NCBI GenBank assembly: GCA_951406725.2
Contig: OX597821.1
Span: 18,476,001 to 18,540,000, forward strand
DNA: 64,000 nt
Origin: Octopus vulgaris
Lineage: Eukaryota
Direction: 5' to 3'
Part shown: positions 10,190 to 63,875 of the stretch, one piece after another
Numbering within the stretch: the first letter of the stretch is position 1
Layout of the letters: each line of letters starts with the position of its first letter
The notes under the pieces: model-generated
What the model saw: only the letters and a program-made list of their open reading frames with translations
The model's database searches: none
Told to the model about the DNA's origin: nothing
Position numbers and translations under genes: made by a program

Positions 10190-12111
10190 ATTTAACAAGA
10201 ATTGTATTAGCATTTATACATTTAGGCAGGTTTAAAGGAGTGGTGGTGGGGGACTTTTTTGGGGGTAGGCATAGCGCAAAATATCATACTTGGGGGAGTG
10301 GTCAAGGAGTCAGTGGTAAGTTAGATGAAAGAATAGATAAAAAAAATAAAAAAAATAAAAATAAAAAAATAAAATAAAAAATATATATAAAAAATATATA
10401 TATAAAAAATATATATATAAAAAAAGGGGGATAGAGTTATAGGTAAATAAGGAGATTCTCACTTATACCTATACACATATGTATACGTATCCACACACAC
10501 ATATATACACACATATATATATATATATATATATATAATGAAGGTGAAATTAATTAATAGCTATAACTCTTTGACTGCTATTTCTAAATTCGGTCTGTGG
10601 TAAGGCAATTCGTTGCTAAACCCTTTATTGCTATATATATATATATATATATATATACATATACATACATACACATATACATACACATCTACATACACAC
10701 ATACATACACCCGCCCACATATACAAATTTATACACATGCACATGCATATACCTGTCTACACATACACACACGTATATATGCATACACTCACTCCCATGC
10801 ATGCACGCATACACACATGTATATATATACCCACGACCACACATACATATATACACAGAAAAATATATATTCATACGCACATTACACTCATGCACACACA
10901 ACACACCTAGTTCCCTATATACACATATTTACACCTATATATACATACACCCACATACACATATGTACATATATATATATATATATATATACATATACAC
11001 GCATACATATATATACATGTGTGCACATACATACATATACACATATACATACACATACACATACACATGTGTACCTATATATACCTACACATACACACAT
11101 ACATACATATATATATATATACATATATATATATATATATATACAATCCAATACAGGCCCATTCCCTAATTTTAATTTTATTATCTTCATTTATTACTTT
11201 TGTTATCTTTGATCGCTAGAGCTAAGGATCCTGGCTATGGCAGCATGTCCATTTGTCTGTCTACTAGAAGGCAAGTACTCATTCCCGCACGAACACTCAT
11301 TAGCACGTACATTCACCCATTCGTACACTCATACACATACACGTACGCACGCGTTATATTCATACATACAAACATCTACATACGTTCACGTATATACACA
11401 TACGTACTCGTACCTACAGATTCGTGTCTACACTTTAGGAGGCTAGTCTATACATATACACCAATAAATATACATATATATATATATACACATATACATA
11501 CACACACACACATATATATATATACTCCTACATACAGATACATACCTATATATATATATATATATATATATATATATATATATATATACATACATACACA
11601 TACACACATATATATACACACACATACATACACATATATATACATACACAAACATTTATACACACATATATATATATACACACATACACACACATACATA
11701 CATATACACACAAACACATACATACGTATACATACATACATACATCCATACATCCATACTTACATGCATTTATACGCATACACACACCCATCTATATATA
11801 TATATATATATATATATATACACACTCACACATACATATACAAATATACGCACACACATACATACATACACGTATACACATACACGCACATACACATATA
11901 CATGCGTACCCATATTTTTATTTTTTTTATTTTTTAATTTTTTTTAATTTTTTTTTTATTTATCTATTCTTTCATCTAACTTACCACTGACTCCTTGACC
12001 ACTCCCCCAAGTATGATATTTTGCGCTATGCCTACCCCCAAAAAAAGTCCCCCACCACCACTCCTTTAAACCTGCCTAAATGTATAAATGCTAATGCAAT
12101 TCTTGTTAAAT

Positions 12112-12162
12112 AGCTTCCTGAAGATTTCTCTTGAATGAAACAGTACTAGTCCTGTAAAAGCT
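12112..12162 (+). ncRNA. Type I hammerhead, mirror copy with one stem I mismatch
   Basis: Same sequence as 10139-10189 but aaagcu in place of gaagcu. Confidence 0.65.
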
Positions 12163-12179
12163 CCTTCTATATAATAAAA

Positions 12180-13690
12180 AAATATATATATAAATATATA
12201 TATATATATATATATATATATATATATATATATATATATATATATATATATATATATATATATATATATATATATATATATATATATATATATATATATA
12301 TATATATATATATATATATATATATATATATATATATATATATATATATATATATATATATATATATATATATATATATATATATATATATATATATATA
12401 TATATATATATATATATATATATATATATATATATATATATATATATATATATATATATATATATATATATATATATATATATATATATATATAACGATG
12501 ATGATGATGATGATATATATATATATATATATATATATATATATATATATATATATATATATATATATATATATATATATATATATATAAATATATATAT
12601 ATATATATATAAATATATATATATATATATATATATATATATATATATATATATATATATATATATATATATATATATATATATATATATATATATATAT
12701 ATATATATATATATATATATATATATATATATATATATATATATATATATATATATATATATATATATATATATATAAATAAATATATATATATAAATAA
12801 ATATATATATATATATATATATATATATATATATATATATATATATATATATATATATATATATATATATATATATATATATATATATATATATATATAT
12901 ATATATATATATATATATATATATATATATATATATATATATATATATATATATATATATATATATATATATATATATATATATATATATATATATATAT
13001 ATATATATATATATATATATATATATATATATATATATATATATATATATATATATATATATATATATATATATATATATATATATATATATATATATAT
13101 ATATATATATATATATATATATATATATATATATATATATATATATATATATATATATATATATATATATATATATATATATATATATATATATATATAT
13201 ATATATATATATATATATATATATATATATATATATATATATATATATATATATATATATATATATATATATATATATATATATATATATATATATATAT
13301 ATATATATATATATATATATATATATATATATATATATATATATATATATATATATATATATATATATATATATATATATATATATATATATATATATAT
13401 ATATATATATATATATATATATATATATATATATATATATATATATATATATATATATATATATATATATATATATATATATATATATATATATATATAT
13501 ATATATATATATATATATATATATTTATATATATCATCATCGTTATATTTATATATATATATTTATATATATATATATATATATATATATATATATATAT
13601 ATATATATATATATATATATATATATATAAATATATATAAATATATATCTATATATATAAATATATATAAATATATATCTATATATATAA
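12180..13690. repeat. (TA)n microsatellite ~1.5 kb
   Basis: Direct inspection. Confidence 0.95.
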
Positions 13691-13691
13691 A

Positions 13692-61899: not shown

Positions 61900-62335
61900 G
61901 CTATTGACCATGCAGTTTGTTGGTTATGGACATAGTACTATAAACTTTCAACTTACAGCTAGGTAGACTGTTGATAGTTGATTATGTGTTTGTCAAGGAC
62001 ACTACACAGTAATCTATACTACATTATAGTACCTATTTAAAGCTAAGTCGAATGTTGACAGTAAACTGTATTGGTCATGGACAATGTACGGTGAACTATT
62101 CAAGTCTGTGATACTAACGTGGATACTGAAGTGTGTTAGTCATAGATACAGTGCAGTAAATTATCCTACAGTATGTCACCTACTTGCAGTTAGGAAGATT
62201 GGTGACAGTTAAGTTTGTTATTGACAGCTAAGATGACTGTTGACATTTGATAATGTGTTTGTCAAGGACATTGTACAGTAAACTATATTACATCTAAGTA
62301 GACTCTTGACAATTCTTAGTGCATTGGACATAGTA
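61900..62335. repeat. Degenerate tandem repeat, unit roughly 60-70 bp
   Basis: Recurrent GTTGAC/GAT..TGTGTTTGTCAAGGACA..ACAGTAA.CTAT (best pair 61966-62024 and 62236-62293). Confidence 0.6.
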
Positions 62336-62938
62336 ACCAAATCTCTCTCTCAAATCACGCACGCCTTAACGTTGAAATATATCTTTGATAATGTTGTCCT
62401 GGGTACACAATGGCTGTGTAAAAAGGGATGGATACGATTTGACTGTCTTTGGTCATGGGTCTTTTTACATTTGGACTGACCTGGACTGAAAAGAAAAGCT
62501 ACTACTACCATTGATAAATTCTTCCTAATGGAAAAATTATTAGTGGTGGGCCTGAAATTTGGTGGTGGGAGAGCAAGTTAATTACCAGTGCTCAACTGCT
62601 ACTTAGTTTATCGACCCCACCCACCAAAAAAAAAAAAAAATGAAAGGCGGCATTTGAACTGAGAACGTAAAATTGGGAAAATGCTCTTAAGCATTTTGTC
62701 TGGCTTGTTAACGATTCTACCATTTCGTCGACTTTACCATCGCTAGTAATACAAACACCACCAACAAGAGAGCTTCTACACAGCCACTCGACTTACAAAA
62801 AATAGCAGCCAAATCGCCTTCAAATCCTCAGAAAACAGAGGACACATTGGTCGATGTAGTCCCAGATACACAATCAGACGCAATGGTCATGGTTGGAACA
62901 TTTTTGACCTTGACTTAACAACTACAACAAAAACAATG

Positions 62939-63162
62939 GGCAATTTTTCGGTACAAGTACCATAACTGCCAATTACTGCTTGTTTACATTTGAAGAAGAT
63001 CGTCACTTTCCGTAAAGTTTTTTTTTTTATATATGTGGGATTAGGGTTAGGTTTTGGGTTAGGGTTAGGGGTGGGGGAAGGGTTTCTTTTTTCATCAGAA
63101 ATGTAAATAAACCCACGGGGGTTTATAATTGGCAGTTATGGTACTTGTACCGAAAGATCGCC
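62939..63162. mobile_element. MITE with ~35-bp TIRs and 9-bp TSD (Merlin-like; MULE not excluded)
   Basis: TIR GGC(A/G)AT(T/C)TTTCGGTACAAGTACCATAACTGCCAATT; TSD AAAACAATG (62930-62938, 63163-63171); internal TTAGGG repeats. Confidence 0.8.
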
Positions 63163-63359
63163 AAAACAATGTATTACGATCCAACGAAAGGCTTGCTTTG
63201 TTGTCATGAGGTCCGTTATAAATAGCAGTCAAATCTCCCTCAAATCACATCCTACTGTCTAAATATTAGGAAAGAACACATTAAATGACGGAGTCTTAAA
63301 TATTCCTTTGACTAGGTGGTCACGGTTGAAACTTTCTATGAGGTCTATTAGGTCAGTGT

Positions 63360-63875
63360 CATCATCATCTTCACCATCACCATCTCCACCAGCACCACAG
63401 CTGCCATCACCACGCTCAGTACCAAAACCTCCGCTTCCACCGTCACCCCACTACAACCACCAACGCAACCACCAAAGCCAACATCACTACCACCGCCATT
63501 GACATTTCTGTTTCCACCGCTTCCGTAACACCACAACCACCACTCGCAGCCGCCGCAGCCGCCGCGACCGCCGAACACGCCGCAACCGCTGCACCCATCA
63601 CCATCATCATATCCATCAGCACTCTCACCACCACCACCACCACCACCACCACCACCACCACCACCACAACTCTCCACCACCACCACTATCCACCACCACC
63701 ACCACCACACCACCACCACCACCACCACCACCACCACCACCACCACCACCACCACAACTCTCCACCACCACAACTTTCCACCACCACAACTCTCCACCAC
63801 GAAAAACAACAACAACAACAACAACAGCACACCCACAACCACCAACCCCCACCATCACTACTACCATCATCTCCA
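63360..63875. repeat. (CAC)n/(CAA)n/(GCC)n low-complexity tract
   Basis: Direct inspection. Confidence 0.85.

Follow-up and report, generated by a model that had tools for sequence, protein, structure and literature searches.

A terminal sequence signature common to diverged short repeats in Octopus vulgaris and its possible relation to Penelope-like elements

Penelope-like elements (PLEs) encode proteins that are the closest relatives of telomerase reverse transcriptase (RT), and what is known of how they choose their RNA and start site comes from a single in vitro study (PMC11167929; here and below, statements on published systems refer to the available parts of the papers cited). In that study, reverse transcription starts internally at a stem-loop, the ~170 nucleotides (nt) upstream are hypothesised to contain a protein-binding region, and within AT-rich DNA the nuclease shows a preference for ATT. 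PLE insertions are described as targeting (TA)n, as having ends that are unequal and as occurring with a 5'-truncated copy in inverted orientation and in partial tandems (PMC8557442), and 190 PLE families, 31 of them recently active, have been reported in O. vulgaris (PMC13282606). Here, a 64,000-nt stretch of O. vulgaris DNA (contig OX597821.1, positions 18,476,001 to 18,540,000; hereafter the window) was analyzed, the sequence evidence being the window itself plus the supplements of published papers. It consists of AT-rich animal DNA laden with microsatellites and holds RT fragments, mariner transposase fragments and short interspersed elements (SINEs). At one end of five families of short repeats (E1 to E4 and the S copies, Table 1) lies a module of ~55-60 nt, laid out as a 17-nt block (the 17-mer), a linker of 4-7 nt, a hairpin of variable sequence and a CTT(T)AT-type word. 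This terminal signature common to diverged short repeats is real, and apparently it has not been described so far.

The module and its surroundings resemble the pseudo-long terminal repeat (pLTR) 3' end or tail of Poseidon PAc (PMC11167929) and Naiad (PMC8557442) in several respects: a truncated partner arm stands in inverted orientation, tandems are partial, the two ends are unequal, the targets are AT-rich or (TA)n, and a stem-loop lies at the terminal junction. Unlike those pLTRs, the module carriers have no open reading frame (ORF) and no hammerhead within the ~100-130 nt that they comprise, and the available text of either paper describes no 17-nt block common to diverged families. The PAc initiation stem-loop is AC-rich, lies inside the ORF and is unlike the module (PMC11167929). 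Set beside the 30-40 nt tail that PLEs carry at one end, the ends of the two E3 arms differ by 14 nt, those of E2 are level, and the tail of a hammerhead-bearing analogue at 8333 measures 43 nt. Metazoan non-LTR retrozymes (PMC7229834; bioRxiv 10.64898/2026.07.22.740005) are likewise short, non-coding, tandem-forming and presumed to be mobilised by PLEs, and the 2 x 361-nt element at 8333 fits this kind; the module carriers, in contrast, have no type I hammerhead and are mostly monomers or mirror pairs. A parallel for a terminal signature of 60-80 nt spread across diverged non-autonomous retroposon families is Pr77 of the L1Tc/ingi elements, which is a 5' promoter and a ribozyme resembling that of hepatitis delta virus (HDV) (PMC4035085), whereas here the HDV fold fails and the geometry points to the 3' end of a template.

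A terminal signature shared by five repeat families

The 17-mer TTTGRCKKCTMTTTCTA occurs exactly at five sites (10570+, 25989-, 26076+, 45282-, 45383+) and with 2 mismatches at 52285-, where its end is variant. With up to 3 mismatches allowed, 14 matches were found versus 1.70 expected, and none of 100 shuffles reached 14, although this count is inflated by the search pattern having been taken from those very sites. A motif matrix was built from four arms, with 12 locally shuffled windows as the null. The matrix scan of the window returned 8 sites in six loci, scoring 18.8-24.3 bits, compared with 14.4 for the next-best position and a shuffle maximum of 16.1; with leave-one-out matrices, every one of the four arms ranked 3rd-7th among 127,970 positions. 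The claim of a shared motif made by the first-pass annotation, which had listed four such elements, is thus borne out, and two of the matrix sites, 62813- (S1) and 63233- (S2), lie beyond that list and had no part in matrix building. A profile search of the window with filters off recovered only the 8 known sites and no ninth (next best E 0.8). At all sites but the truncated arm at 45383 (7 of 8), the word CTT(Y0-2)RT begins 26-36 nt past the 17-mer, against a background of 426 in 7,924 positions (5.4%), and both matrix-independent sites carry it at the same distance. Eleven motif columns are invariant across 7 sequences. A motif-like pair at 47464 and 47700 (47440-47740 +), ~236 nt apart and with S2-like letters downstream, has a matrix score inside the null range.

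Outside the window, motif 16-mers had no match in full-text literature, in which no description of such a terminal signature was found, and no copy of the module pieces appeared in the covered files of the supplements of PMC9115989, PMC5786205 (4 stray matches), PMC4824008 and PMC13282606, in which truncated long lines and line breaks may conceal matches. The ends of cephalopod Naiads contain no 17-mer, and BLAST searches of plasmids and phages with the module gave none. In bacterial and archaeal genomes, motif plus CTYRT was met in 6 stretches that share no hairpin and were put down to chance.

The arms of E2 (82 of 90 nt identical) and of E3 (77 of 80) are mirror images with the module outermost, E1 and E4 each consist of one terminal piece of ~100 nt, and S0, S1 and S2 stand head to tail once a SINE and an element with terminal inverted repeats (TIRs) and a 9-bp duplication are set aside. 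The TA embedding claimed at first holds on both sides for E1 only (10538-10631); E1 and the left arms of E2 and E3 adjoin TA runs, and E4 lies within 25 nt of one. As an aside on the E2 arms, 3 of their 8 differences fall in the 5-nt linker and none in the motif (25960-25972 versus 26093-26105).

Table 1. Module carriers and hammerhead-bearing elements of the window (positions counted from its first letter)
Feature	Position	Strand	Description
E1	10538..10631	+	94-nt element between two TA runs; 17-mer 10570-10586
E1 hairpin	10592-10622	+	inner stem UUCG-capped; then CTTTATT 10623-10629
E2 left arm	25925..26014	-	17-mer 25989-25973, hairpin 25966-25941, CTTATT 25940-25935, then TA run
E2 right arm	26051..26140	+	17-mer 26076-26092, hairpin 26099-26124, CTTATT 26125-26130
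E3 left arm	45226..45318	-	17-mer 45282-45266, hairpin 45258-45237, CTTAT 45236-45232, then (TA)36
E3 right arm	45347..45426	+	17-mer 45383-45399; terminates within the hairpin, without CTTAT
E4	52236..52330	-	motif 52285-52268, variant end TTTTTCAG; inner boundary approximate
E4 hairpin	52265-52243	-	then CTTTATT 52242-52236
S0	62325..62500	-	third S-family copy, more decayed; motif too degraded to score
S1	62757..62930	-	older copy; motif 62813-62797, CTTGTT 62768-62763; far end meets (CAA)-like repeats
S2	63172..63358	-	family of S1; motif 63233-63217, CTTTCGTT 63190-63183; terminus E2-like
3472 element	3472..5783	.	inverted element with hammerhead, cleavage 3592-; the cleavage site is where the right arm ends
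8333 element	8333..9152	-	2 x 361-nt tandem with type I hammerheads that cleave at 8512 and 8873 (minus)
10052 element	10052..12178	.	hammerhead-bearing inverted element, cleavage 10145-; without CTTAT end
51419 element	51419..52105	.	inverted pair, type I hammerheads, cleavage 51576-, 52070+; 3' ends outward

BLASTN links none of the elements first listed to one another. E2 and E3 nevertheless align over 87-96 nt, with none of 100 shuffles as good, and when motif and terminal word are masked, 3 of 14 family pairs upstream and 2 of 14 downstream remain at p<0.05, the E2 right arm and S1 giving p=0.001 upstream. The description of the elements as unrelated was therefore overstated; they are also not diverged copies of one simple repeat, and judging from their alignments the families are best seen as five deeply diverged homologues. 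Such homology could be passive, the five families decaying from one element end of which the 17-mer is merely the best-kept stretch, with no dedicated signal. In keeping with this, the likeness extends past the motif in the E2-E3 and E2-S1 comparisons, the families fall into sub-groups sharing extra letters, TG-type (E1, E3 right arm, S1, S2) versus GT-type (E2, E4), the TG/GT swap being probably one event, and the hairpin region of E1 repeats a 17-nt stretch that in E2 lies upstream of the motif. The flanks, however, are only 32-58% alike after gapped alignment while the 11 motif columns stay invariant in the 7 sequences, and the stems pair with different letters more often than controls do; we regard a purely passive origin as unlikely. 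The stretch repeated in E1 (10596-10612 +, in the hairpin, 3' of the motif) has 15 letters identical to 25986-26002 - in E2 (5' of the motif), so that a second, decayed copy of the block may be present in E1.

Hairpin, strand and the ribozyme possibility

Over E1, the left arms of E2 and E3, E4 and S1, which represent the five families, 22 of 25 cells of the closing stem pair when registers are set by hand. The first pair is always G-C, and positions 2-5 vary (GC/CG/AT, TA/AT/GC, AT/TA/TG and TA/GC, respectively). Compared with real segments of the window that were given the same register freedom as the elements, 3 of 7 stems taken singly are better (P 0.007-0.034) and the rest give 0.15-0.54. 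For the four elements first listed, the joint P is 0.0004-0.0016 versus such segments and 0.003-0.013 (Fisher) versus shuffles, and for S1 and S2 together it is 0.30; folding z-scores for the whole module range from -1.9 to +0.8. The ggttt/agacc stem given for 10570 had been read off the minus strand and contains a C.A mismatch on the strand then proposed, and the closing stem of the 26076 arm has one T.T mismatch. Judging from five families, a hairpin of variable sequence probably occupies a fixed position. Two further stems were discarded: an outer stem pairing sequence upstream of the motif with the CTT(T)AT word in a three-way junction (Fisher 0.23-0.39 versus shuffles, and no better than cross-family pairs), and a small stem inside the motif, which shows no two-sided change in 21 cells.

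The G.U-versus-A.C evidence splits about evenly between the two strands. Wobble pairs elsewhere speak for the proposed TTTGAC strand, as does the UUCG loop in E1; since the wobble evidence is mixed, structure by itself does not decide the polarity.

An Rfam comparison, suggested by the first-pass annotation, assigns the module to no family: the Rfam 15 scan of the window gave 0 matches at the gathering score, local scans of E1, the left arms of E2 and E3, E4 and S1 had a best E of 1.3, and a tRNA search found none. A hammerhead descriptor matched neither strand of E1-E4 or of the S copies. The module could instead function on the opposite strand, as the 5' head of short RTE/Ingi-type elements carrying a self-cleaving ribozyme of a new class or an HDV-like or hammerhead relic. 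That strand presents a purine-rich core, YTA-GAAA-TAG..GYCAAA with invariant CAAA, its GAAA-N6-YC spacing is that of the window's hammerheads, S1 can be parsed as a 3-bp P3, a 7-nt loop and one P1.1 pair ahead of CAAA, both S0 and S1 terminate in a tail of RTE-like kind, and bipartite RTE/Ingi elements are reported to retain a 5' ribozyme (PMC5786205). The resemblance to a hammerhead, however, is one of spacing alone: the GAAA slot is intact in 4 of 7 and UH in 5 of 7, but the CUGANGA core keeps 2-4 of 6 letters, G5 is absent in 7/7 and G8 in 6/7, and stem I has 0-2 pairs. A descriptor of our own for the HDV fold, built on features commonly given for it and anchored on the CAAA of the opposite strand, scored 8-15, within a background over 2,848 sites of median ~14 and top 21, with no CG in L3 in 8/8 and 1-4 of 6 pairs in P2. 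The small hairpin is probable (>0.3) in just 3 of 8 folds, 5'-only fragments and mirror arms are unlike the products of target-primed copying of such a head, and S2 is without the final ~10 nt that S0 and S1 share before their repeats. An opposite-strand ribozyme head thus seems quite unlikely. The ribozyme-like module first offered as an alternative fares no better in the known layouts, Rfam, hammerhead and HDV-like all failing. A further reading is a new small structured RNA that would replace the hammerhead in a hammerhead-less PLE clade, either a novel self-cleaving class (the AGAAATAG strand has the purine-rich core) or a telomerase-RNA-like compact element sufficient to make any RNA a Penelope RT substrate; taken jointly, these two forms are decidedly improbable.

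A candidate terminal signal of Penelope-like elements

The reading we favour, with a probability of roughly one half, is that the module is the terminal RT-recognition or initiation signal of short, 5'-truncated, non-autonomous PLE derivatives. It is suggested by the mirror arms with the module outermost, the TA-run targets and the outward 3' ends of the hammerhead-bearing analogues, of which there are four distinct ones in the window, non-coding, inverted and inserted in TA, none found by Rfam. In 4/4 the ribozyme is directed outward in its sense and one end differs from the other in extent, with 96-179 nt from hammerhead to long end. The geometry of these elements, together with the published PLE layout, would make the TTTGAC strand the template and the module the point where copying starts. 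E1 and E4 are only ~100-nt terminal pieces, as expected if copying starts at the module end, and the mirror arms of E2 and E3 and the head-to-tail S1-S2 correspond to the inverted truncated partner copy and the partial tandem of PLEs, respectively.

Under this model a PLE protein would bind the RNA at its 3'-terminal module and begin copying it into cDNA at nicks within AT-rich microsatellites, the 17-mer serving as the protein-binding site and the hairpin positioning initiation, so that cDNA would begin 2-12 nt past the CTT(T)AT word. E1-E4 would be non-autonomous insertions that some PLE protein produced in trans and that are heavily truncated at the 5' side, E2 and E3 with an inverted truncated partner copy and S0-S2 as head-to-tail copies. 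All families would descend from one ancestor, the blocks being kept and the hairpin letters drifting with pairing retained.

The analogues support the earlier statement on their ends in part. The 8333 element, which also has an inverted arm with the 43-nt extension, ends in a hairpin plus CCCTTAT, as does the sense strand of the Naiad_Bpla consensus, and the long arm of the 51419 element ends in a hairpin plus CTTAATT; this type of end is seen in these 2 of the 4 and not in the 3472 and 10052 elements. E1 is hosted in the TA-rich middle of the 10052 element. Because the module fragments are short and the hammerhead lies 96-179 nt from the end in the analogues, the type I hammerhead that PLE pLTRs other than those of Naiads carry could have lain past the truncation point. 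Among minor features of the hammerheads, the core of the 8333 element reads UUGACGA, two of the four elements have an unusually long stem II (50-58 nt), and the 3472 element contains, at 4223-4290 +, one more core of hammerhead-like appearance, decayed, with CTGATGA, a stem and an altered GAAA.

Several results weigh against a PLE signal. The 17-mer is in 0/4 of the hammerhead elements (best matrix score 5.1), which for the 3472 and 10052 elements refers to their termini. It is also absent, by exact 10-mer search, from the Naiad/Chlamys/Hydra supplement of PMC8557442 (3 stray matches; line breaks may hide some), and most of 53 Naiad ends, judged by eye, are without a terminal hairpin plus CTTAT. 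No PLE ORF or GIY-YIG domain was found among the 296/439 candidate frames scanned, and translations of E2, E3 and S1 find no meaningful relatives, the latter being a weak negative; in carriers of 100-200 nt, ORF absence is expected of non-autonomous fragments. RNAalifold on 6 sequences returned 0 consensus pairs and 4 of 7 closing stems are individually non-significant, so that of the covarying stem first claimed, the pairing with different letters and its joint significance stand and a consensus fold does not. Taken on the opposite strand, the motif gives a 3-bp stem capped by a GAAA loop, with an invariant CAAA; the variants of E1, E4 and S2 form G.U pairs on that strand but are mismatched on the proposed one. 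S1 and S2 lie outside TA repeats, in trinucleotide repeats, where the embedding claim does not hold, and the far ends of S0 and S1 are trinucleotide repeats resembling RTE-type tails, which would imply the opposite polarity. The first-pass suggestion of a 3' recognition or priming structure for a Penelope RT is the best-supported reading, by architecture and analogy only, and no PLE protein gene is linked to it. A protein-coding module was rejected, changes falling at first and second codon positions, spacing not preserving frame and open-frame searches being empty; two HMMER matches proved to be tandem-repeat translations without real likeness.

Two further explanations place the signal at the level of DNA or of splicing. 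The module might be the end signal of a TA-inserting DNA transposon, either as TIRs of the miniature inverted-repeat transposable element (MITE) kind or as a Helentron/Helitron-type subterminal repeat with hairpin. E2 and E3 are indeed inverted repeats with a short centre, and one of the TA runs hosts a Helitron-like element (45552-45914). A conserved block, short linker, hairpin and T-rich terminus recall what we take to be the 3' ends of Helentron/DINE-1, and a hairpin plus CTRR on the other strand recalls what are presumably Helitron ends. Yet, as we understand Helentron/DINE-1, the likeness stops there: the module has no hairpin-less partner subterminal repeat and no internal microsatellite core, and both ends are full mirror copies. 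The MITE/TIR comparison gave no fixed terminal nucleotides or binding-site distance, since terminal letters and motif-to-end distance vary by family and even between the E3 arms, whose ends lie 14 nt apart; sequence past CTRR is conserved, unlike a Helitron end, the S copies are tandem and unpaired, and the arms meet abruptly, like those of the hammerhead elements. We consider a DNA-level signal very improbable. Alternatively, the motif could be the branch point and 3' splice acceptor of a PLE pLTR intron just upstream of the terminal stem-loop, given that YAG preceded by a pyrimidine-rich stretch forms the end of 5 of 8 sites, that the E4 variant keeps CAG and that the Penelope 5' region keeps a conserved 75-nt intron (PMC2377424). 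The branch-like A is G in 3/8 sites, however, AG is missing in 3/8, the invariant TTTG.C is not needed for splicing, and the fragments have no donor site or downstream ORF, which leaves this the remotest of the readings. Likenesses to U7/Sm sites, telomerase P6.1, tRNA D-arms and the downstream promoter element (DPE) were not supported across the families.

If the module is a PLE signal, a 55-60 nt block in five families would amount to a natural minimal PLE substrate, and the question of binding would be directly testable. The signature would also offer a handle for classifying short unclassified repeats, whose copies must be very numerous if 64 kb already hold six loci; should it reflect passive homology among repeat ends, it would serve as an annotation aid only.

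Other repeats in the window

Decayed non-LTR retrotransposon ORF fragments with RVT_1 and zf-RVT matches lie at 14554-15632, 20922-22001, 52915-54760 and 57182-57577; a TA run of 1.6 kb splits one of them, and an expanded (ATT)n tract another. We presume them to be RTE-like and Dong/R4-like. Mariner fragments occur at 19280, 26290, 30074 and 48080. The non-autonomous element at 45552-45914 +, which we take to be Helitron-like from its TC start and hairpin plus CTAG end, has a second copy of its 3' end at 50029-50064 -.

The 3' untranslated regions of three Naiads share a motif which, judged by eye, presumably resembles the twister ribozyme. It lies ~130-170 nt from the 3' end in Naiad_Mgal, Naiad_Bpla and Naiad_Mphi (PMC8557442 supplement); in the available text of that paper, Naiads are reported only to lack canonical hammerheads. 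The TIR element at the S1-S2 junction (62939-63162), flanked by its 9-bp target duplication, contains internal TTAGGG repeats. Next to S0, 61950-62300 is a decayed tandem, and a minisatellite of 50-nt units spans 49381-49599.

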